Assembly: GCA_041666185.1 (NCBI GenBank)
Contig: JBAYHL010000001.1
Coordinates: 69,073 to 133,072, forward strand
Direction of reading: 5' to 3'
Origin: Patescibacteria group bacterium
GTDB lineage: Bacteria > Patescibacteriota > UBA1384 > UBA12157 > JAENIV01
DNA: 64,000 nucleotides
Shown here: piece by piece, positions 3,255-63,095 of the stretch
How the letters are laid out: the number at the start of each line of letters is the position of its first letter
How positions within the stretch are numbered: position 1 is the stretch's first letter
Notes under the pieces: model-generated
Databases searched by the model: none
What the model was told of the DNA's origin: nothing
What the model saw: the letters and a program-made list of their open reading frames with translations, nothing else
Position numbers and translations under genes: made by a program

Positions 3255-3989
3255 TTGAAAAAAAGAGTTGCGGTAGTTACAGGGGCAGGACAAGGCATCG
3301 GAAAAGCGATTGCTTTTGCTCTTGCCAAGGAAGAAGGCATGATTGTCGTAGTCGTTGATTATAACGAGACGATTGCAAAAGAGGCTGCTCTGGAAATACG
3401 AGCATCTGGAGGCAACGCTACTGATCTGCGATGTGATGTCGGCAACCCTATCGAGGTGAGCTCTATTGCAGATATATGGCAGAACCAAGGGATTGATATT
3501 CTGGTTAACTGTGCCGGCATTACAAGAGACAAGCTGTCTGTGCGAATGACAGATAGCGAGTGGAGTGATGTCATTAGAACCAACCTCGATGGTACCTTCT
3601 ACTGTTCCAGGACGGTTGCCAATGTGATGCTTAAGTCCCGGAGGGGCGGGTGCATTGTAAATATTGCCAGTGTGATGGGTATCACGGGTAATGTAGGCCA
3701 GGCGAACTATGCCTCATCCAAAGGCGGAGTGATCGCTTTGACCAAGACAATGGCAAAGGAATATGCCTCACGTAATATTCGAGTCAATGCAGTTGCACCT
3801 GGCTTCATCGCAACAGCGATGACTGAGTCCTTGCCTGAGGTAAAGAGGATTGAAATCGAGAAGGCAATTCCAATGGGCCGGCACGGTAAACCGGAAGAAG
3901 TAGCTGAGGTGGTCAAGTTCCTCTGCTCCGATGCAGCCAGTTACATAACCGGCGAAGTAATCAAGATTGATGGCGGCCTGGCAATCTAG
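3255..3989 (+). CDS. fabG: Short-chain dehydrogenase/reductase, 3-oxoacyl-ACP reductase (FabG)-like
   Basis: It has the TGAGQGIGKA Rossmann motif, NCAG, and an S...YASSK catalytic triad context. It uses a TTG start after an AAAGGAGG RBS, and a rho-independent terminator follows. Confidence 0.85.
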   Translation: MKKRVAVVTGAGQGIGKAIAFALAKEEGMIVVVVDYNETIAKEAALEIRASGGNATDLRCDVGNPIEVSSIADIWQNQGIDILVNCAGITRDKLSVRMTDSEWSDVIRTNLDGTFYCSRTVANVMLKSRRGGCIVNIASVMGITGNVGQANYASSKGGVIALTKTMAKEYASRNIRVNAVAPGFIATAMTESLPEVKRIEIEKAIPMGRHGKPEEVAEVVKFLCSDAASYITGEVIKIDGGLAI

Positions 3990-4016
3990 CAGGCGCGATA
4001 ATAACAAAATCATCTT

Positions 4017-4052
4017 CCCCGCAGGCGCTATTGCTTGCGGGGCTATTTTTTG
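4017..4052 (+). terminator. Rho-independent terminator after fabG-like gene
   Basis: The stem CCCCGCAGGCGC...GCTTGCGGGG is followed by CTATTTTTTGTG. Confidence 0.6.
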
Positions 4053-4181
4053 TGTTCCCACACATTATATTCAATGGGATGACTGGCAGGGGAAGATTTA
4101 AAAACTCGTGGTTAATGCATGTTGACTAATTCAGTGCCTCTGTTAAAATAGCACTGGACAAAAAAAGGGGGTGAATGACTA

Positions 4182-4868
4182 ATGTCCAATATTTCCTATC
4201 ATGTGGGCCACATGGCAAGAAGTGTTCGATTGATGTTTGGCTGCAATCCTGTATTGCCGGAAGGTATGGAGATAGAAACAGGCAGTTTTCCTGAGCCTGC
4301 TGTCTACTTAGATCCATCGGGAGATGGCAGTTGTGTGCCAGGCATGAAGATTAAACTGAAGTGGTCAATCTCTCTGGGAGAATCTACCCAGGTGGATCTT
4401 CTTGACCTGAAAGATGAATGGCTAGTCGTACCGGTTGATAGCGTCAAGCTAACTGGTCACTGTGGTTTCACTGTAAAATCAAATGATCTGCCTAGAGGGG
4501 AAACAAGAAAGCTAACGGAAAAGAGGGGCTGGACGAATCGTGCAGATATCTTCCTGAGCGCTATCAGGGTTCTTTCTGAGCACCATACAGCGGTTCCCGG
4601 AGACAGAACGCCGATCACGGAAGATTCTGATCTGGGGAATGACCTCGGGATGGATCAAATTGACTTTATGGCCATAGTCGTTGAACTAGAAGATGTCTTC
4701 GAGATTGAAATTCCCGATGATGCTTTCCCTGTATCACAGGCAGAAGAACTTGTGAAGCTTGAGGAACGTGATGACGGATCGACAAAGCTCGTCGGTCCTG
4801 ATCTGATGGGTCCTGGATTAACAGTCGGACTGATTGTCGATTATATAGAACGGAAGTTGTTCTTGTAA
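4182..4868 (+). CDS. Two-domain protein with a C-terminal acyl-carrier-protein-like domain in which the conserved Ser is replaced by Gln (DLGMDQIDF...)
   Basis: The C-terminal sequence DLGMDQIDFMAIVVELEDVFEIEIPDD aligns to the ACP consensus [27 protein letters not shown], with Gln at the Ser position. An AAGGGGGTGA RBS is present. A terminator lies at 4906-4938. Confidence 0.55.
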   Translation: MSNISYHVGHMARSVRLMFGCNPVLPEGMEIETGSFPEPAVYLDPSGDGSCVPGMKIKLKWSISLGESTQVDLLDLKDEWLVVPVDSVKLTGHCGFTVKSNDLPRGETRKLTEKRGWTNRADIFLSAIRVLSEHHTAVPGDRTPITEDSDLGNDLGMDQIDFMAIVVELEDVFEIEIPDDAFPVSQAEELVKLEERDDGSTKLVGPDLMGPGLTVGLIVDYIERKLFL

Positions 4869-4905
4869 TCGCCGCACACCATCGTTGCAGTTTCCTATAT
4901 TCTCG

Positions 4906-11912: not shown

Positions 11913-12599
<687 letters not shown>

Positions 12600-13587: not shown

Positions 13588-14733
13588 TTGTTGAATAAAT
13601 TCTACAATAATGTTAAAAAATTAACAAAGGATATAATGCGGAAAGATTCTGTTAATAACCTGAAAAATAAAAGAGAGCATATAAGCAAACGACTCCGTTT
13701 TAAAATTTTTGAACGAGATCAATTTAAGTGTGTTTATTGTGGTAGTGGCATCGAAATGGGTTTAACTCTTCACATTGACCATATAATTCCTGTTTCTAAA
13801 GGCGGAACTAATGAGGAAGCCAATTTAGTCACAGCCTGCGACCAATGTAATCTTGGTAAAGGAGCAAAAATAATTGGAGCGGATAAAATTCCTAACATTA
13901 AAGAAGTAAATGAAGCGCTAACAAAAGAAATTAAACTGAATACAGAGCGAAGGGAACAACTTAAACAATATTATCATTATAAAGAAAAACTCCAGAATAT
14001 AAAGAATCCAGAACAAGATGCGTTCAATGATATTTTAAAGAGAAGGCTTGGCTACTCCTTAACTTCTGTCGAGTTTAAACAATTTAAAAGGCTGCATGAT
14101 AAATGTGGCTTGGATCTTGTCATTGAAGGAATTGGAATTGTTGCCGAGAAAGACAGAGACTGGGCATCTTCCGAGCAGAAGCACAGATACCTCTGTGGAG
14201 TTTTATATAATTTATTTCGCGAGAAAACTGATCCGCTCTACAATCCTGAAAGAGAGGTTAAATATTATTATCTTAATCACAAAAATAACAGCGGCAGCGT
14301 ATATTATGTGGATTGGAAAATTAAGCCATATATCCAGAAACTAGAGCTTCCTAAGATAAAAGAGTTAATAGACGACACATTTTCAGAAGGGAGAGATGGC
14401 TATTTTAGGTACTTTATTGAACAGTGTAAGGATGCTCTCTTGTTAATTGAAGAAGAGAAGAAAGCTAAGGAATTTTATCTAACTCATCCAAATAAAATCC
14501 AGGATGATATTTATAACAGTGATAAAATTAGGTATTTTATTGAGATTTTAGGATTAGATCGTGTGTTGGAATTAATGGGACAGGCCCTAAAGGATTATGA
14601 AACCCCGGAAGTCAGAAATCATATTCAAGTCAACCATGATGGCAAGCCCTTTAATTACTTAATGGAAACGTGCGAGATATTTGAATGGGATGAGATAGAA
14701 AAGAAAAATGGCAGAGTCGGAATCCCATTCTAA
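13588..14733 (+). CDS. HNH endonuclease-domain protein with large C-terminal extension
   Basis: CVYCG...HIDHIIPVSKGG...ACDQCN matches the HNH motif. Confidence 0.6.
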   Translation: MLNKFYNNVKKLTKDIMRKDSVNNLKNKREHISKRLRFKIFERDQFKCVYCGSGIEMGLTLHIDHIIPVSKGGTNEEANLVTACDQCNLGKGAKIIGADKIPNIKEVNEALTKEIKLNTERREQLKQYYHYKEKLQNIKNPEQDAFNDILKRRLGYSLTSVEFKQFKRLHDKCGLDLVIEGIGIVAEKDRDWASSEQKHRYLCGVLYNLFREKTDPLYNPEREVKYYYLNHKNNSGSVYYVDWKIKPYIQKLELPKIKELIDDTFSEGRDGYFRYFIEQCKDALLLIEEEKKAKEFYLTHPNKIQDDIYNSDKIRYFIEILGLDRVLELMGQALKDYETPEVRNHIQVNHDGKPFNYLMETCEIFEWDEIEKKNGRVGIPF

Positions 14734-33530: not shown

Positions 33531-34499
33531 TCACCCCAAAATTAAATTAAATAAATAACCTGTAAATATAATTCCAAGTCCCACAATAACCGCAAAGATT
33601 AAAACTAGCTTTGGCTTCATCACTTTTTTAAGAATTAAAAATTCAGGTAACGACAAACCAGTGATAGCCATCATAAAGGCAAGTGCTGTGCCTACTGCTA
33701 CACCTTTTTCTGTAAGTGCACTAATAAGAGGAATAACGCCAGCTGCATTAGAATATAGTGGAATACCGATAAGCGTAGCCAAAGGAACTGCATACCACTT
33801 ATCACTTCCTGCATAACGAGCCAAAAAGTCAGTTGGAACATAACCGTGAATGAACGCTCCGATAGCAATACCAACTAAGATATATGGATATACTTTCTTT
33901 ATAATGTCTAAAGTGTAAAATTTAGCATATTTGGCACGTTCTCTAAGAGTTTTCTCTTGTTCATTGAGTTTCGTGCTGATTTTATGCTCATAGACAAATT
34001 TTTCAACCAAACTTTCCACTTTGAGTTTGCCAATAATTAAGCCTGAGATAATAGCGATTAAAAGACCACTTGCGATATAAATTAGGGCAATTTTTAAGCC
34101 AAACATACCAGCGAGCAAGACCAATGCGACTTCATTTATCATCGGTGAAGCAATGAGAAAAGAAAAAGTTATTCCAAGTGGAATGCCAGCTTCAACAAAA
34201 CCCAAAAACAACGGAATGGCACTGCAAGTGCAAAACGGAGTTACTATTCCTAACAAAGATGCTAAAATATTTCCAGTAAATTGATGCTTACGAGATAAAA
34301 TACTTCTTATTCTTTCAGGTGATAAATAAGTTCTGATAAAGCTAACGATAAAAATAATAACAACTAATAAAATTAAAATTTTGATTGTGTCAAAAATAAA
34401 GAAATTTATCGCTTCAGCAAGTAAAGTGCTGTGTCCAATTTTTAAAACATTAAAAGTAAGCCAGTCAGCAAATAATTTTACAGGATAAAAAATATCCAT
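33531..34499 (-). CDS. COG0701-type permease, ArsP-like (TPFCTCS motif)
   Basis: Polytopic membrane protein. The TPFCTCS motif resembles the TPFCSCS motif of organoarsenical permeases. Confidence 0.6.
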   Translation of the reverse strand: MDIFYPVKLFADWLTFNVLKIGHSTLLAEAINFFIFDTIKILILLVVIIFIVSFIRTYLSPERIRSILSRKHQFTGNILASLLGIVTPFCTCSAIPLFLGFVEAGIPLGITFSFLIASPMINEVALVLLAGMFGLKIALIYIASGLLIAIISGLIIGKLKVESLVEKFVYEHKISTKLNEQEKTLRERAKYAKFYTLDIIKKVYPYILVGIAIGAFIHGYVPTDFLARYAGSDKWYAVPLATLIGIPLYSNAAGVIPLISALTEKGVAVGTALAFMMAITGLSLPEFLILKKVMKPKLVLIFAVIVGLGIIFTGYLFNLILG

Positions 34500-34748
34500 C
34501 TAACTCTCCTTTATACTGCTTTTTATCACTTTTTTAATTTCTTCCAGTTTTGGAATAGAACCTACAATCACTGGCTTTTCATTAATTGCCAAAACGGGCA
34601 TTCTCATCCATCCAGTTTCGATAATTTTTTGGATATCAACAATATATTCAACTTCGGAATCGATTTTGAGGTCTTTTGCAGCCTGTTTTGTCAACTCATA
34701 AAGAGTTTTACACGAACAACATCCTGAACCAAATACCTGAATCTTCAT
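34500..34748 (-). CDS. Thioredoxin-fold small redox protein (GSGCCSC)
   Basis: 82-aa protein with a CxxC context. Confidence 0.55.
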   Translation of the reverse strand: MKIQVFGSGCCSCKTLYELTKQAAKDLKIDSEVEYIVDIQKIIETGWMRMPVLAINEKPVIVGSIPKLEEIKKVIKSSIKES

Positions 34749-35017
34749 TTTACTCCTCCTGTTATTTTTATGAGTTTGTTAAGTTGTGAATCCATTAGTT
34801 TTTTATTAAGTTTATAAAATATTTTTTGACCATCTCGACGGTCAAATAACACTTTGTTATCTTTAAGAACTTTAAGATGGTGAGATATTAAATTTTGAGG
34901 CAAATCAAATTCCTTTTGGATTTCACAAACACATCTTTCACCATTTTTAAGAAAGACTATAATTCTAAACCTGTTATCGTCTGCAATCGCTTTTAAAAAC
35001 TCTAAGCTATTATTCAT
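34745..35017 (-). CDS. arsR: ArsR/SmtB-family metalloregulator
   Basis: HTH with a CVCE metal-binding site. Confidence 0.7.
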   Translation of the reverse strand: MNNSLEFLKAIADDNRFRIIVFLKNGERCVCEIQKEFDLPQNLISHHLKVLKDNKVLFDRRDGQKIFYKLNKKLMDSQLNKLIKITGGVK

Positions 35018-35191
35018 AATATCAATTTATATTGATATATCTATCTTATTGAGAAACTAATATTTTGTCAAATAAAAATAGGTTACACCCCAACAGGATT
35101 AAAACATATATTTTCTTTGAAAATTCCGCGAAAGGTGTAACTTCCCTATTTTCTTCTGTAATAATATTTTCTAAATTTTACTAACAAGTTT

Positions 35192-35240
35192 GGCAGCGCC
35201 GACGGGAGTTATGAACAGCTCGGAAACCCACGGTTTTCCA
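35192..35240 (+). repeat. 49-bp direct repeat copy 1 (tRNA-Glu 3'-end-like: reverse complement ends ...CCCGTCGGCGCTGCCA)
   Basis: It is identical to 35720-35768 except for one mismatch. It shares 14 nt with the tRNA-Glu acceptor end. Confidence 0.55.
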
Positions 35241-35345
35241 ACCCCTCTTGAGTTTGAATTTCATATCGTCACCAATAACGTCACGTCATTATTGACTTTT
35301 AAAGAGAAGGGTGTTACAAATAGTTTATCAAAAGGGGGAATAAAG

Positions 35346-35651
35346 ATGTCAGAAAAAAGTATCCGAGATATTACTGAAGAATGGCTTGCTACCCAACCCC
35401 GCAGAGACGAGATTGATTTGAAGGGATACCTCGTACTAGTGTTTGGGATTAAAGATGACGATGGGAAAGAAATTAGCTGTGACACAGCAATCGATATAAT
35501 AACTAATGACTCCGAGCTGCGTCAATCTGCAATATCAAGCTTTAGACAGTATCTACTGAAAGCCGGAGTAGTGACATCCCAGGAATATCCTTTTGGAAAA
35601 GGGCAGGATAGCTATCCTTTGTATACCAACACAAATAACTTAAGAGTCTAG
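35346..35651 (+). CDS. Hypothetical protein (101 aa) inside 49-bp-repeat-bounded segment
   Basis: RBS AAAGGGGGAATAAAG. The ORF-track N-terminus reads through the repeat and I rejected it. Confidence 0.35.
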   Translation: MSEKSIRDITEEWLATQPRRDEIDLKGYLVLVFGIKDDDGKEISCDTAIDIITNDSELRQSAISSFRQYLLKAGVVTSQEYPFGKGQDSYPLYTNTNNLRV

Positions 35652-35664
35652 ACTTATGTCCAAC

Positions 35665-35719
35665 AGCCCGCTGCTCGCGGGCTTTTTTTAATACAAAAAA
35701 AACAGGATTTCAACCTGTT
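35665..35719. terminator. Convergent terminator pair (AGCCCGCTGCTCGCGGGCT-T7 on +; AACAGGTTGAAATCCTGTT-T8 on -)
   Basis: Read directly. Confidence 0.55.
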
Positions 35720-35768
35720 ATTTTTGCTGGCAGCGCCGACGGGAGTTACGAACAGCTCGGAAACCCAC
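35720..35768 (+). repeat. 49-bp direct repeat copy 2
   Basis: See copy 1. Confidence 0.55.
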
Positions 35769-35906
35769 GGTTTTCCGACGTCCGAGAAGTATCTCGGACT
35801 GCCTTCCTCTACGGGAAACCTCTGGTTTCCCGACCCCTTCCTGGTTCGAATCCCAACTATTAGAACTGAAAAAGAGAGGCAATCATAAATGATTATCTCT
35901 CTTTTT

Positions 35907-35980
35907 CAGCGCCGACGGGATTCGAACCCGTGATCTTCTGCATGAAAAGCAGATATCCTAGGCCTCTAGACGACGGCGCC
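35907..35980 (-). tRNA. tRNA-Glu (anticodon TTC)
   Basis: Cloverleaf read by hand. The acceptor is GGCGCCG/CGGCGCT, the D-arm GTCTAGAGGCCTAGGAT, the anticodon loop TTTTCAT and the T-arm GGGTTCGAATCCC. CCA is not encoded. Confidence 0.8.
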
Positions 35981-36039
35981 ACAAACACACCGATAAATGT
36001 ACTAATAGCACCAGCTAAAAACAAAATTTCGATGGCGCT

Positions 36040-36079
36040 CTCGGCCGCGGAAATTTCTGACGAAATTATAGGCCTCTAG
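36040..36079 (+). repeat. Dispersed palindromic repeat element copy A (TCGGCCGCGGAAATTTCTGACGAAATTATAGGCCTC)
   Basis: It shares CGGCCGCGGAAATTTCTGAC plus (G)AATTATA with 43750-43792 and, as a reverse-complement tandem, with 40658-40729. Confidence 0.6.
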
Positions 36080-36120
36080 CCCGCTAACCGCGGGTCCACG
36101 TCTAGTGGAACGACGGCGCC
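36071..36120 (-). pseudogene. tRNA-Glu 5'-fragment with a 30-nt insertion in the D-arm (pseudo-tRNA)
   Basis: The reverse complement GGCGCCGTCGT[TCCACTAGACGTGGACCCGCGGTTAGCGGG]CTAGAGGCC matches tRNA-Glu positions 1-11 and the D-loop. There is no anticodon or T-arm. Confidence 0.5.
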
Positions 36121-36221
36121 ACAAAAATATCATATCATAAAAATACACTCTTGTCCAGAATGAATAACATGGCAACAAAAATGTTATAATGTTTATGTAT
36201 ATAAAAATATAAAGGAGGAAA

Positions 36222-36902
36222 ATGAAAAAATTTATTTGGACTATTGGCCTTTTGTTAATTTTATTGCCAATCACAAGCTTTGCTGCCAACCAAGACACAG
36301 GACAAAACAATGGACAAACTAGCCAACCATCATCTAGCCCCTCATCAACTCAAAATCAAAACACAACTCAAACCAATAACCCCGAAACTGGCGTGATGAC
36401 ACAAGAACAAACAAATACCCAACTCCAAAGTGAACTGCAAGAAAGTATGCCAAGTTATAGCCCTAAGGGCCAATTTAGCCAAGAACGAATGAGCCAAATC
36501 TCTCTAACGTTAGAAAGTATGGTCATGCTTTCTAACCGATTAGAAAATTCAAATATAAAAGAACAAATTAACTCAATCGCCCACAACCAAGCAAATTCAG
36601 AAGACATGGTCAACCAATCATTAGATAAAGCAGAATCCAGAAGTAAAGTTGCTAAATTCTTTGTTGGACCAAATTACAAAGAATTAAAAAATGTAAAACA
36701 AGAGATAGAACAAAATCGTTTAAGAATCGAAGAACTTAATCGTATTATGTCACAAATAACCAATCAAACAGATAAAACCGAGCTACAAAATCAAATTCAA
36801 ATACTTGAAATACAAAATACCAGTCTAGAGGAAGAATTAGATATTGATATTCAAGGCTTTTCTCTATTTGGATGGCTTTCGAAATCAATAAATAAATATT
36901 AA
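36222..36902 (+). CDS. Secreted Q/N/S/T-rich coiled-coil protein (hypothetical)
   Basis: Signal peptide followed by low-complexity polar repeats. Confidence 0.45.
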   Translation: MKKFIWTIGLLLILLPITSFAANQDTGQNNGQTSQPSSSPSSTQNQNTTQTNNPETGVMTQEQTNTQLQSELQESMPSYSPKGQFSQERMSQISLTLESMVMLSNRLENSNIKEQINSIAHNQANSEDMVNQSLDKAESRSKVAKFFVGPNYKELKNVKQEIEQNRLRIEELNRIMSQITNQTDKTELQNQIQILEIQNTSLEEELDIDIQGFSLFGWLSKSINKY

Positions 36903-36959
36903 ACCGCTAATTAATTTGCATCAAAGTTTCATCCAATATTAATCTGTTATAATAAATTT

Positions 36960-37607
36960 ATGATAGCTCTTTTAGCTAAAATTTTACCTTTGCAATTAGC
37001 AGCAACTTTAAGTCCGGGCATTTTTGCCTTAACAATTATTTTATTTACTAAAAAAAATCATGCCATTGGTCGCGTCCTAGCGCTCTTACTGGGCTCTATT
37101 TTTGTAGCCATCTTTTTAGGTTTTTTAGGCTTAAAAACAGGTCAAAGCATTACTGCTTTTAGCACTCACGGTAAAATATCTGTTATCATTGATTTTGCTT
37201 TAGCAATTTTATTTCTCTATTTTGGTATTAAAGGACTAGTAAAACCAGATCGAGAAAAAAAAGAATCTCTCGGAGAAAATCCTGCTAGACAGCTTGGTAA
37301 ATGGTTTATTGTCGGTTTAATTATAAGTATTACTAATTTTGACGCTGTTTTACTAAATTTTGCTGCCGCTAAAGAAATTGGCGCATCAGGAATTATTTTA
37401 TTCGATAAAATTATTTTACTTTTTGTTGGTATCTTATTTTTTGTTTTACCCATTTTAATACCACTTTTTTTCTACCTAATCTTACCGTCACTCGCCCAAA
37501 AGGTTTTAACACCAATTAATAAATTTTTAGTAAAATTTGGTCGCCTACTGGTTTCAATAATCTTTATTATATTTGCTATTTACTTAATCTACAAAGGATT
37601 AAAATAA
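36960..37607 (+). CDS. Integral membrane protein (6 TM, hypothetical)
   Basis: Hydrophobicity pattern. Confidence 0.45.
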   Translation: MIALLAKILPLQLAATLSPGIFALTIILFTKKNHAIGRVLALLLGSIFVAIFLGFLGLKTGQSITAFSTHGKISVIIDFALAILFLYFGIKGLVKPDREKKESLGENPARQLGKWFIVGLIISITNFDAVLLNFAAAKEIGASGIILFDKIILLFVGILFFVLPILIPLFFYLILPSLAQKVLTPINKFLVKFGRLLVSIIFIIFAIYLIYKGLK

Positions 37608-37635
37608 TAGAATAACCTTAGCAAGGAGAAAATAA

Positions 37636-38409
37636 ATGGAAGAAAAAACAACTGATAAAACTCCCGAAAAACCCAAAAAATCTAAATGGTTACTTTGGAC
37701 TTGTGGATCTTGCGGTTGCCTGGTAATTATCATTATGGTCGCTTTATTTTCCCTTAGATCATTTACCGGTTTTAATATAGGAAAATTTTTTGATAACAGT
37801 CAAAACAATGGTTCTAATTTAGATGAAGAAGACAAAGAGATGACCAAATCGGAACTTATTGATTATTTCGTAGGAGAAACCACTGTTTATCCAGGTTTTG
37901 ATAAATCAATAAAAGTAATGAAATGGGAGAAACCTGTTGTAACTATTTCAGTCGCTGACACACCGCCAGAAGGAGGTATTAAAGCTATTGACGATTTTAT
38001 AAATAAATTTAATAACAATAGCACAAAAACAAAGCTACAACGCATCGAAAGTGACGGAGATATTAAAATTTATTTTCAAGTTTCAACTGATGGTGCCGCT
38101 GGTCGTTCTGGACCAAGTTCGGGGGCAGATTATATTATTGACCATGCAAATATTAAGCTTTCGGAAGAAGCAGCCATGTTCGATCAATCTTTAAGTTCAG
38201 TTCTGTCACATGAAATATTTCACGCACTTGGTTTCACTGGTCACTATCAAGGTAGTGCTTGCCGATTAATGTCACCAACAGTATGTGGTTCTCGTTTAAC
38301 GATTAATGAAGAAAGATTAATCCAAATGCTTTATAGTACCGATATGCCAGACGGTATTAACGAATCCGAGATTAGATCTTTTTTACAAAACTGGAGTCCA
38401 AATAATTAA
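37636..38409 (+). CDS. Membrane-anchored metzincin-like zinc metalloprotease (HEIFHALGFTGH)
   Basis: HExxHxxGxxH motif and an N-terminal TM helix. Confidence 0.6.
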   Translation: MEEKTTDKTPEKPKKSKWLLWTCGSCGCLVIIIMVALFSLRSFTGFNIGKFFDNSQNNGSNLDEEDKEMTKSELIDYFVGETTVYPGFDKSIKVMKWEKPVVTISVADTPPEGGIKAIDDFINKFNNNSTKTKLQRIESDGDIKIYFQVSTDGAAGRSGPSSGADYIIDHANIKLSEEAAMFDQSLSSVLSHEIFHALGFTGHYQGSACRLMSPTVCGSRLTINEERLIQMLYSTDMPDGINESEIRSFLQNWSPNN

Positions 38410-47414: not shown

Positions 47415-47473
47415 GATTTTTATTAATAAATCTAATTAGGAGTGGTCGACACGAATCGAACGTGTCTATTTCC

Positions 47474-58729: not shown

Positions 58730-58806
58730 GGGCCCGTAGCGTAGCGGTTTAACGCGCCTCCCTGTCACGGAGGAGATCGCCGGTTCGAATCCGGTCGGGC
58801 CCGCCA
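58730..58806 (+). tRNA. tRNA-Asp (anticodon GTC), CCA encoded
   Basis: The acceptor is GGGCCCG/CGGGCCC, the anticodon loop CTGTCAC and the T-arm GCCGGTTCGAATCCGGT. Confidence 0.85.
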
Positions 58807-60399
58807 TTCCAAACGAAGAAGCCGTAAAGCTTCTTTTTTGGTATCATTTAAACCAGTTGTTACCCCTGCTAACACTGGTTCCAACCTTTTATATTTGGCT
58901 TCTACCGCTGGATAACGATTAATGATGGGAATCAGCCATTCATTAGGTTTAATATCCAATAATCCGTCTTTTAGCACAAAGTTCCAACCTAAAGCTGAGA
59001 AGATCTCTTTCTTTTGCTGAATATCCCCTATTTCAAAGGCTTTCAAGGCATATGTTACAAAATCAAAGAATCTCTCCCCTAACTCCATCCATTTCTCTGC
59101 TCTGTGGTCAGTATCCTTAAGTTCTTCCTGTAATTTAGCTTTTTTTGCTATCAATTCCTGTTTATTTTGAATATATTCGTCGTCATCTATTAATGATCGC
59201 AATTTCATTTTAAGTAGGTTATCGAGTTCAGTCTGAGTATTATTGATAGCTTTTTGTTGTGATTGATAGATCTTATTTCGATCACCAATTTCTTGATTGC
59301 TCCGACGATTCACAACCGATAGTGCCCAATCTCGAAAAACTGGCATTATTTTTATCCTACTAATCTCTCTTTCAATTTGTGTTTCGAGATTATCCTTGGT
59401 TATATACCCTTGCGAACACCATTTTTTCTTATGAGTGCAATGATAATAAGTAAAACTCTTCAATCGATTAGTACTTTTTATAAGTTTTGTTTTCATCTCG
59501 GCAGTGATTAGACAACCACACTCACCGCAACGGATCTGACCAGTAAAAGGAAAATAGTGCGTTTTGGGTCTTGGTTTGCCTTTTCTACCAAGTAATATTT
59601 GCACTTGATCAAATTCATCAAGAGTTACCATCGCTTCATGCTTCCCGGGATATTCTACCCCTTTATGTAAGATTACGCCTGAATAAAAGGGGTTGGTAAA
59701 CATTGCATAGATTGAACTCCGTGCCAAAGGACCACCGCCCCTTTTTCGCCTTTTTAAAGTAGTAAAACCCCACTGGTTGTTAGCTATATCAAGAATTATT
59801 GGTGGGGTGTAGTTGCCTGTCAGCATTAAATCCCACATTTTTCTAACTAAATCAAATCTTTTCGGATCTTTTATGATTGTATGTTCTGCAGTTTCAATAT
59901 TTACAAAATTTAAATAACCATTGGGTGCTTCTGAAGGCAACCAACCCATACTTAGCTTCTTCTCTAGTCCTCTTTTAACATCAGTTCCGAGTTTAGCTGA
60001 ATAATATTGGCCTTGCGAGAGTACCATTTGCAACATCAAAATACCAGACGCATCATTAATAAAACTATATGAACCGAATTTTAGATCTTTTATAACGCCA
60101 GTTCTTAAGGCATAAGTAATATTGGCAGCGTCTATCTCGTTTCTTGAAAGCCTATCGGGATGCCAAGAGATTATTCCATGAGCTTCGCCTTTTTCGATTC
60201 TTTCCATCATTTTTTGAAATAAAGGCCGATTATATGGCTTGAAAGCACTATGACTTTCTTCGAAATAGTCAACTATCGTCAACTCACCAAAGTATTCTTT
60301 GATTTTATCTTTTTGAGCGGGGATAGAAAGGGCTTGTCGCTCTTCACCTTCGCTGGATTTTCTCAAATAAGCAAAATATTTAATCTTTTCCATATTCAT
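58765..60399 (-). CDS. Large serine recombinase (resolvase catalytic domain, recombinase domain and zinc ribbon); 3' end overlaps the tRNA-Asp 3' half
   Basis: YLRKSSEGE...SIPAQ catalytic-Ser context and a CGECGC zinc ribbon. The last about 14 codons translate the tRNA complement. Confidence 0.8.
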   Translation of the reverse strand: MNMEKIKYFAYLRKSSEGEERQALSIPAQKDKIKEYFGELTIVDYFEESHSAFKPYNRPLFQKMMERIEKGEAHGIISWHPDRLSRNEIDAANITYALRTGVIKDLKFGSYSFINDASGILMLQMVLSQGQYYSAKLGTDVKRGLEKKLSMGWLPSEAPNGYLNFVNIETAEHTIIKDPKRFDLVRKMWDLMLTGNYTPPIILDIANNQWGFTTLKRRKRGGGPLARSSIYAMFTNPFYSGVILHKGVEYPGKHEAMVTLDEFDQVQILLGRKGKPRPKTHYFPFTGQIRCGECGCLITAEMKTKLIKSTNRLKSFTYYHCTHKKKWCSQGYITKDNLETQIEREISRIKIMPVFRDWALSVVNRRSNQEIGDRNKIYQSQQKAINNTQTELDNLLKMKLRSLIDDDEYIQNKQELIAKKAKLQEELKDTDHRAEKWMELGERFFDFVTYALKAFEIGDIQQKKEIFSALGWNFVLKDGLLDIKPNEWLIPIINRYPAVEAKYKRLEPVLAGVTTGLNDTKKEALRLLRLEWRARPDSNRRSPP

Positions 60400-62949: not shown

Positions 62950-63095
62950 AAACCGCCTAAACCCGTAAGGGCATGGCAACCAAAAATCCTACAGTGATAT
63001 AAACGGTCTTTCGACCGCACTTATTCACTGTAGGTTCATACCCGAAAGGGTGTGGGACAGTTCCGAAAGGAATTGTCGTGGTTCGAAAGACCATT
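62950..63095 (+). ncRNA. Candidate structured cis-regulatory RNA (multiple GNRA-capped hairpins, alternative terminator/antiterminator pairing, U-tract)
   Basis: Hairpins: CCCGTAAGGG; the pair CCTACAGTGA...TCACTGTAGG enclosing GGTCTTTCGACC; ACCCGAAAGGGT; TTCCGAAAGGAA; TGGTTCGAAAGACCA followed by TTTTTG. The segment at 62996-63007 can alternatively pair with 63071-63083. Confidence 0.4.

Follow-up and report, generated by a model that had tools for sequence, protein, structure and literature searches.

The window examined here, a stretch of 64,000 nucleotides (64 kb) from a Patescibacteria metagenome-assembled genome (MAG) of 35% G+C, carries ten tRNA genes, among which tRNA-Glu is the only one with copies of parts of itself outside the gene. 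Its locus spans positions 35191–36120 and is flanked by ordinary genes, an ArsR-thioredoxin-ArsP operon, NDK and a DEAD helicase on one side and a secreted 226-aa protein (ORF226), SfLAP and Zip on the other. Decomposition of these 930 nt, together with comparison with related genomes, showed that they represent a single ancestral tRNA-Glu gene enlarged from within, with the former gene ends now 930 nt apart.

Features of the tRNA-Glu locus

Table 1. Features of the tRNA-Glu locus, in the direction of tRNA transcription (positions are those of the 64-kb window).
Feature	Positions	Strand	Remarks
Promoter, probably that of the ancestral tRNA-Glu gene	36129–36157	-	TGGACA-17-TATGAT with TG extension; 10/12, best promoter match of the region
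Displaced 5′ end, probably ancestral: leader TTTGT and tRNA nt 1–11	36110–36125	-	16/16 identical to 35970–35985
5′ module	36034–36120	-	stem-closed three-hairpin structure; predicted fold, z only -1.75
30-nt insert between tRNA nt 11 and 12 of the displaced fragment	36080–36109	-	two 5-bp hairpins; from sequence and fold
D-loop look-alike of the displaced fragment	36062–36079	-	83% over 18 nt (nt 12–22 11/11, then 4/7)
Insertion E5	35986–36109	-	124 nt, between two copies of the 16-nt direct repeat TTTGTGGCGCCGTCGT
Intact tRNA-Glu(UUC)	35907–35980	-	74 nt, without encoded CCA
Long imperfect palindrome centred at 35887/8	35843–35928	.	21-nt arms, 90%
Insertion A	35745–35906	-	162 nt; hairpin, inverted T-loop copy, three perfect hairpins
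Repeat copy 2	35728–35779	-	35-nt insert arm, 14-nt core and CCA
Insertion B	35208–35727	-	520 nt; terminator, opposite-strand orphan ORF, shortened decayed copy of the A arm
Terminator at the left end of insertion B	35701–35719	-	directly after copy 2
ORF101, orphan protein	35346–35651	+	GGGGGA ribosome-binding site; own terminator 35665–35683
Repeat copy 1	35191–35242	-	arm of B, core 35194–35207 (probably ancestral) and encoded CCA 35191–35193
3′ flank, probably that of the ancestral tRNA-Glu gene	35145–35187	-	aligns with the L005 3′ flank at the same offset, nt 4–46 after CCA

The gene in the middle of the locus was identified by ARAGORN as tRNA-Glu(UUC) and matched the Rfam tRNA model at 60.6 bits, in agreement with a preliminary description of this DNA that had reported an intact minus-strand tRNA-Glu(TTC). 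The CCA end is encoded by seven of the ten tRNA genes of the window, by both displaced copies of the tRNA-Glu 3′ end and by the tRNA-Glu of the related genome L005; the intact tRNA-Glu is without it. On the 5′ side, the first 11 nt and the D-loop of tRNA-Glu had been described as recurring around a 30-nt hairpin-forming insertion, which was confirmed by sequence and fold, with tRNA nt 12–22 matched 11/11 at 36069–36079. The stem predicted to close the 5′ module is formed by GGCGCCGTCG and CGAGAGCGCC, the latter matching the inverted tRNA 5′ end at 8/10 positions.

On the 3′ side, a 14-nt core, CAGCGCCGACGGGA, is present exactly three times in the window (35194, 35731 and 35907), where 0.05 occurrences are expected, the last of these being the 3′ end of the intact tRNA itself. 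The other two belong to a pair of direct repeats that had been reported as 49 bp long. The repeats are real (the 49-nt pattern gave two matches against 0.00 expected) and the position of copy 1 was right, but that given for copy 2, 35720–35768, was off by 8 nt; each copy comprises 52 nt, 50 of which are identical between them. As described, their reverse complement ends in the acceptor 3′ strand and CCA (...CCCGTCGGCGCTGCCA). The minus-strand reading ends ...AACTCCCGTCGGCGCTGCCA, of which only the last 14 nt match the tRNA, or 17 with CCA. We infer that the 52-nt repeats consist of an insert arm and a crossover core, and are not tRNA halves. The minus-strand terminator said to follow copy 2 was also found, at 35719–35701.

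Insertion A, with a G+C fraction of 0.56 against approximately 0.25–0.35 in the flanks, starts directly behind the live tRNA core with a hairpin of 21-bp arms, includes perfect hairpins at 35813–35831, 35781–35798 and 35759–35776, and ends in a 35-nt arm fused to the core, CCA and terminator of insertion B. The latter starts behind core and CCA with its terminator, carries ORF101 in convergent orientation, and ends in a 35-nt arm fused to the presumed ancestral core, CCA and flank. The two arms are 96% identical, whereas the opposite ends of A and B differ. At the unit boundaries identity falls abruptly, from 100% over 14–17 nt to unrelated sequence.

These pieces account for the whole locus. 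It decomposes into one gene (74 nt and CCA) and three units, each an insert plus a duplicated tRNA segment, one at the 5′ end (124 + 16 nt) and two at the 3′ end (162 + 14 and 520 + 17 nt), giving 930 = 77 + (124 + 16) + (162 + 14) + (520 + 17) with nothing left over.

The preliminary description had overlooked the palindrome at 35887/8, the inverted copies of tRNA ends and the nature of the repeats, which beyond their last 17 nt are insert arms. The first arm of the palindrome is the tRNA from the T-loop to the 3′ end followed by 21 nt of trailer, and the second is an inverted copy of the first. Read along the arms, GGTTCGAATCCC/AACTATTAGAA/CTGAAAAAGAGAG/GCAATCAT faces GGTTCGAATCCC/GTCGGCG/CTGAAAAAGAGAG/ATAATCAT, with the acceptor part alone replaced, and the stretch 35843–35854 is the sole exact GGTTCGAATCCC in the window outside a tRNA. 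The core hairpin (35866–35909) is predicted to form a terminator-like stem behind the tRNA. Module A opens with the inverted T-loop copy, which pairs with a degenerate T-loop-like GTTCGTAACTCCC just before the core, and this helix encloses the three perfect hairpins. Copy 1 is a shortened, decayed module A with two hairpins fewer and a degenerate inverted copy.

The 101-aa open reading frame (ORF) that had been noted within the repeat-bracketed segment does lie between the copies. Its ribosome-binding site, at 35335–35340, indicates the 101-aa start at 35346. ORF101 found itself alone among 5.8 billion proteins, and a library of 1.84 billion gave low-complexity matches only (weak, to D/T-rich repeats of giant surface proteins). 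No domain was detected in Pfam or PHROG, and the AlphaFold2 model, of low confidence (predicted local distance difference test score 62), gave no fold match. The plus-strand frame is also open from repeat copy 1 into ORF101, and public gene calls give a 146-aa protein with its ATG at 35211, a codon owed to a single T/C difference between the repeat copies. The repeats as protein-coding sequence (a 146/153-aa ‘gene’) were rejected, as this depends on that ATG; the GC-rich repeat is open on both strands, and its two related hairpins are 58 nt apart and hence in different frames, which was counted against coding. The 146-aa call is a warning that gene callers make a spurious protein from a repeat.

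The structure of the locus is not an assembly artefact, as three independent assemblies concur: an ENA assembly is 100% identical over the entire locus, a Logan contig is 100% identical over 34001–36070, and a JGI contig from a 99.2% strain covers 35958–38297. Contigs also end within the locus (Logan SRR6484324 at 36070, JGI 3300037810 at 35958 and 35665). These breaks hint at branching of the assembly graph and may reflect strain variants, a possible cause because the repeats are shorter than usual k-mers.

Related and comparable loci

The outermost pieces of the locus appear to be the true ends of a single ancestral tRNA-Glu gene, with its start at 36120 and its end at 35191. This is supported because the outer pieces carry the promoter of the clade and a flank colinear with that of L005, and because CCA is encoded in the displaced copies. 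A -10 element of the TATGATATGAT type lies directly upstream of tRNA-Glu in L004, L053 and L005, and in L004 and L053 TATGAT stands at the same distance upstream of the gene. Within the window, a promoter of the TATGAT type was found upstream of the 5′ fragment only, and there is no comparable promoter match upstream of the intact tRNA-Glu.

An uninterrupted tRNA-Glu, sought among related genomes, was seen in L005 (Patescibacteria H43-bin058), where the 74 nt are identical, CCA is encoded, the promoter is of the homologous type (-10 element TGATATGCT) and the 3′ flank is colinear. Over 43 nt, the flank of copy 1 scored 20 against that of L005, compared with a shuffle mean of 12.5, and 8 of 2000 shuffles reached 20; neither the flank of copy 2 nor that of the intact tRNA gave an alignment with the L005 3′ flank. 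The same two end points are 77 nt apart in L005 and 930 nt apart in the window. With orthologues of ORF226 (40–60% identity) as guides, no clean empty site was found, gene order being too little conserved. In L128 (2376–4711) and L130 (2333–4702) an unrelated 153–157-aa ORF and a DUF134 gene lie between ArsR and the ORF226 orthologue, the position that ORF101 and the tRNA-Glu locus occupy in the window.

Short tRNA-like sequences were also observed behind tRNA genes of the relatives. L005 has a T-loop-like GGTTCGAATCCC in direct orientation downstream of tRNA-Glu (733–750), and L132 (3180–3200 and 2870–2900) has an inverted GGATTCGAAC after the terminator downstream of tRNA-Glu, as well as a partial copy of the tRNA-Lys T-arm region downstream of tRNA-Lys. 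In the metagenome contigs L048 and L111, which have the same sequence here, an ORF beginning MNLRQDYQKALELRLEGKTYGEIRKLF and with the look of a helix-turn-helix protein starts 2 nt after the CCA of tRNA-Glu, and is possibly the start of an inserted element.

Most matches of a metagenome scan with core and CCA were chance ones from high-GC genomes; the others were a few ordinary tRNA-Glu genes and L105, a locus from Hainich groundwater whose closest named rplT matches come from Yanofskybacteria MAGs. Here tRNA-Glu is followed by a small hairpin, GCGTCGGGATTTGAA, about 90 nt of GC-rich hairpins, the direct copy CAAATCCCGTTGGCGCTA, a terminator and a convergent rplT. There is no ambiguity in reading GCGTCGGGATTTGAA as an inverted copy of the tRNA 3′ end, since TTCAAAT lacks palindromic symmetry. 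The layout is shared by L139 and L140 (rplT protein 89% identical), where the interior measures about 270 nt and the direct copy reads CAAATCCCGCCGGTGCTA, and the module is absent from L142 and L143 (rplT 86%). Between L105 and L139 the module ends align, the inverted copy being identical at 15/15 positions while third codon positions of rplT stand at 69%, and the interior shows large indels. The L139 direct copy carries three changes that leave the RNA pairing intact (two in a bulge, one G-C to G-U), a weak signal with an estimated p of about 0.06. No integrase was found near the L105 and L139 loci. L105 and L139/L140 appear to be independent analogues, similarly built modules in another Patescibacteria lineage. 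As a separate observation, the Yanofskybacteria MAG L145 has an RVT_1 reverse transcriptase beside a bAvd gene near rplT (3479–4880), a pairing typical of a diversity-generating retroelement.

Possible origin by site-specific insertion

Tandem site-specific insertions with reconstitution of the target may have produced this arrangement, an origin to which we assign a probability of about one half. At least three small DNA segments would have entered the gene ends by site-specific recombination, each bringing a replacement for the tRNA segment that it displaced. Insertion B would have come first, into the 3′ end, pushing off the native core, CCA and flank and supplying a core with CCA and a terminator. 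Insertion A, which is related to B and shares its 35-nt arm, would then have entered the regenerated 3′ end, with a core lacking CCA and a hairpin terminator; it is placed later than B because of its junctions. Insertion E5 would have settled behind nt 11 of the 5′ end, supplying leader and nt 1–11 and leaving the native promoter 140 nt upstream. The central intact gene would thus be of mosaic make-up, its transcription starting at the old promoter and running through E5. The recombinase would be encoded elsewhere, and the inserts would be either attachment (att)-proximal remnants of larger integrative elements, left by deletion in the manner of cis-mobilizable elements (CIMEs), or tiny elements mobilised in trans.

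Several observations argue for insertion. With identity dropping from 100% to none, each boundary reads as a crossover junction and not as the edge of a decayed duplication; tandem duplication followed by decay was rejected on account of the same sharp boundaries. Each 3′ insert begins with a terminator or hairpin directly behind the regenerated tRNA end, and integrating elements typically supply a terminator at this place. That the arms of A and B are alike and their other ends unlike is as expected when related elements accrete in tandem. Moreover, the inserts are foreign in composition, with G+C up to 0.56, B holds an orphan gene, and tRNA-Glu alone of the ten tRNA genes is affected. Likewise, small inserts with a displaced tRNA-Glu 3′ end and a terminator occur independently in L105 and L139/L140, and not in L142/L143. 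The preliminary description had read the locus as the residue of successive integrations and excisions at a tRNA att site; the apparently genuine ancestral ends, the sharp crossovers and the tandem repeats support the integrations, whereas excisions are not required and neither an integrase in the window nor relatives of the inserts in the collections searched were found.

A number of points weigh against this origin. No tyrosine integrase (Phage_integrase-type) was found among the ORFs of at least 150 aa in the window, shorter ORFs and pseudogenes lying outside the scan, and the sole recombinase, of the large serine type, is situated at tRNA-Asp, 23 kb from the locus. An autonomous relative with a matching attP was not found in IMG/VR, a metagenome scan, phages or plasmids. 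Exact patterns of the 18–23-nt arms had 0 matches in IMG/VR and the metagenome scan, although exact-word scans would miss diverged relatives; a gapped pattern of the architecture and two patterns of inverted-copy ends returned only chance or tRNA matches in IMG/VR, and BLAST against phages and plasmids matched the tRNA only. The single architecture match in IMG/VR, L138, was rejected as the att region of an actinobacterial prophage with a chance core match. All inserts are below 600 nt (124, 162 and 520), close to the size of an attP region. The only candidate for an empty site, L005, is a different genus-level genome with different gene order and not a close strain. Classical tRNA att integration replaces the 3′ end only. 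The displaced 5′ end, for this reason, needs a separate, atypical event; reconstituting insertion at a tRNA 5′ end is atypical, and the 16-nt repeat includes 5 nt of host leader. Finally, simple scars leave the inverted tRNA-end copies, the perfect hairpins and the strong predicted structure unaccounted for, as well as the layout shared with a distant lineage, in which the inverted copy is 15/15 between L105 and L139.

Among known systems, the att sites of tyrosine-integrase prophages, integrative and conjugative elements and islands resemble the locus in that direct repeats equal the tRNA 3′ end, sequence brought in by the element restores the gene, the native 3′ end comes to lie with its flank beyond the insert, and the DNA between is foreign in composition and carries cargo. 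Here the 14–17-nt core occurs three times and the 16-nt 5′ repeat twice, with the intact tRNA between. In contrast to such sites, the locus has no integrase, inserts of 124–520 nt instead of kilobases, one event at the 5′ end, and inverted tRNA-end copies inside. CIMEs and their tandem accretion have been described (PMC5704250), and the ICESt1/ICESt3-type case resembles the locus in its tandem att-flanked units without integration genes and its three att copies at a tRNA 3′ end (PMC5704250). Insertions A and B are likewise bounded by cores and lack integration and transfer genes, the orphan ORF101 being the sole gene. However, CIMEs are kilobase remnants with recognisable integrase-carrying relatives, whereas the units here are near the size of an attP region and no autonomous relative was found in the searches above.

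For the 5′ side, a displaced tRNA 5′ fragment in Caldiarchaeum (PMC3293823) is comparable, as it lies upstream of an intact copy and was left by an inserted segment. That case is archaeal, with a 1.8-kb recombinase-encoding insert in six copies, while E5 is 124 nt long, geneless and single-copy. Integron cassettes also consist of tandem units with one ORF or none, and clusters of attC sites lacking integron-integrases (CALINs) have no adjacent integrase either. The unit ends of the locus resemble attC sites in being imperfectly palindromic 85–135-nt sites with conserved ends and a variable centre. Unlike integrons, the locus has neither IntI nor attI, its anchor is a tRNA gene, and the R″/R′ consensus (RYYYAAC/GTTRRRY) is missing at the module ends, which read GTTGGGA... 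and ...TCGTAAC / GTTACGA. No module sequence was found in the 64 kb outside the tRNA-Glu locus, and with it none of the many dispersed copies, with terminal inverted repeats and target-site duplication, that define miniature inverted-repeat transposable elements.

Repeats of att type at a tRNA gene are a well-known phenomenon. What is unusual here is the miniature, palindromic form without integrase, the displacement of both gene ends, and the parallel in a second lineage. If the pieces are scars only, the locus is a worked example of a promoter and a gene end pushed far apart in a very reduced genome with function kept. A broader, and doubtful, proposal is a class of Patescibacteria modules of about 120–520 nt, palindromic and integrase-less, that sit at tRNA-Glu gene ends, each closed by a tRNA-end copy and an inverted copy. 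They would be either cassette-like mini-elements moved in trans, with the tRNA gene as docking site and single-gene cargo such as ORF101, or domesticated RNA domains that mimic tRNA ends and share the transcript of the tRNA, with the locus of the window as a three-unit array and L105 and L139 as independent members. Were the mini-elements true, they would represent a cassette-type route of gene acquisition where gene exchange is little known; the RNA domains, if true, would be a new kind of tRNA-linked structured RNA.

Alternative readings and further observations

The modules could instead be functional structured RNAs that are co-transcribed with tRNA-Glu, each a multi-hairpin domain closed by a minihelix-like helix of tRNA end and complement. 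We regard this as unlikely. Possible roles would be a processing or termination signal, a folding insulator sequestering the duplicated tRNA ends, or a decoy, with an insertion origin being secondary or irrelevant. The perfect GC-rich hairpins within a 35%-GC genome are consistent with such a role, as is the predicted structure, which lies far beyond shuffled sequences in the 428-nt minus-strand transcript (z = -8.4), L105 (-5.4) and L139 (-7.7). Moreover, the window and L105/L139 share a common order of tRNA, hairpin, inverted 3′ end, variable core, direct copy and terminator; the inverted copy is fully kept between L105 and L139 despite the divergence of rplT third positions; the three substitutions in the L139 direct copy fall in a bulge or change G-C to G-U; and L105 has no terminator between tRNA and module.

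The same structural signal is produced automatically by inverted repeats in DNA, and module A alone (z = -1.6) and the 5′ module (z = -1.75) fall far short of it. The minimum-energy structure predicted for the complete transcript joins the 5′ fragment to the 3′ end of copy 2; this pairing and the strong z follow from the repeats and on their own are no evidence of function. Rfam and ARAGORN searches of the window, L105 and L139 for transfer-messenger RNA (tmRNA), permuted tmRNA, group I introns, ribozymes and Y-RNA-like RNAs called plain tRNA only, with no Rfam family match to the modules. Furthermore, the interior is not conserved, with three hairpins in the window, two in L105 and five to six in L139, and the modules are not in L142/L143, L053, L103 and L005. 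In the window a hairpin with a U-run stands between tRNA and module A, and copy 1 is separated from the tRNA by two terminators and a convergent gene and hence falls outside the same transcript. The reading also leaves the displaced ancestral ends unexplained. Plant mitochondrial t-elements and the MALAT1-associated small cytoplasmic RNA (mascRNA) are tRNA-like processing elements. By analogy, an acceptor/T-like helix beside the transcript might be recognised by RNase P or RNase Z, but the modules differ from these elements in having no T-loop, and nothing beyond the tRNA itself matched the mascRNA model.

It is improbable that a single element bearing its own complete tRNA-Glu destroyed the host gene and then decayed except for the essential tRNA, leaving the fragments as dead host halves. 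Such tRNA-dependent lysogeny is documented in mycobacteriophages (PMC10865867), where host tRNA fragments lie on both sides of DNA carrying a complete tRNA of the same isotype. The nested order of the locus (host 5′ fragment, intact gene, host 3′ fragment), with native promoter and flank outermost, is in line with it, and a tRNA-sized remnant kept in a reduced genome would be accounted for. However, in the documented case a single core of about 10 bp splits the gene once and the whole phage is present (PMC10865867), whereas here one fragment stops at nt 22/29 and the other begins at nt 59, the gene is restored where the inserts join it, and phage genes are lacking at the locus. The host fragments (nt 1–22/29 and 59–76) are thus not adjacent and share no common core, so that deletion of nt 30–58 would be needed. 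They are, moreover, 100% identical over 16–17 nt and then unrelated, which is not even decay; two tandem 3′ copies with 96%-identical arms stay unexplained, and the 74 nt of the intact gene are identical to the native gene of L005.

Still less probable is an origin without any mobile element, in which replication switched templates or slipped at the T-arm, which is quasi-palindromic, and at the acceptor end, whose GGCGCC is palindromic. This would suit the inverted tRNA-end fragments in the window, L105 and L139, and the 86-nt palindrome at 35887/8, whose arms agree at 12/12, 13/13 and 6/8 positions and differ mainly in the acceptor part. What template switching yields, though, are copies of sequence already there, and it cannot make 124–520 nt of unrelated GC-rich DNA or an orphan gene with ribosome-binding site and terminator; nor does it predict a terminator at the start of each insert.

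That the pieces form one non-standard RNA gene (a split, permuted or intron-containing tRNA, a two-piece tmRNA or a nested tRNA) is scarcely credible: a 7-bp acceptor stem with CCA is possible between the 5′ fragment and the copy-2 3′ end and is present in the minimum-energy structure, but this pairing is trivial as both pieces are tRNA ends, the outer ‘gene’ has no anticodon arm and T-arm, and ARAGORN and the Rfam models (tmRNA, permuted tmRNA and group I intron, to E = 10) called plain tRNA only, leaving the repeats uncalled. The acceptor has C3-G70, not G3-U70, and the repeats are without a T-arm; we take the C3-G70 pair to exclude the alanine identity that tmRNA requires. Group I introns in Patescibacteria tRNA genes have their fold inserted in the anticodon loop (PMC13011429). 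An intron of this kind was rejected here, with no Intron_gpI match at the gathering score or at E up to 10 and with inserts at nt 11/12 and the 3′ end.

Elsewhere in the window, the large serine recombinase (544 aa, 58765–60399, minus strand; Resolvase, Recombinase and Zn_ribbon_recom domains) overlaps by about 39 nt the 3′ half of tRNA-Asp (58730–58803, plus strand), and may be the integrase end of an element inserted there. Genes of mobile-element type were found at the window start (TraG-D_C at 85–906 and a Replic_Relax relaxase at 1020–1808), followed by a reverse transcriptase fragment at 11913–12599 and an HNH endonuclease at 13588–14733. A LOOT RNA is located at 62954–63077. At 47450–47464, 22 nt downstream of tRNA-His, there is a T-arm look-alike hairpin, CACGTTCGATTCGTG, which does not copy the T-arm of tRNA-His itself.

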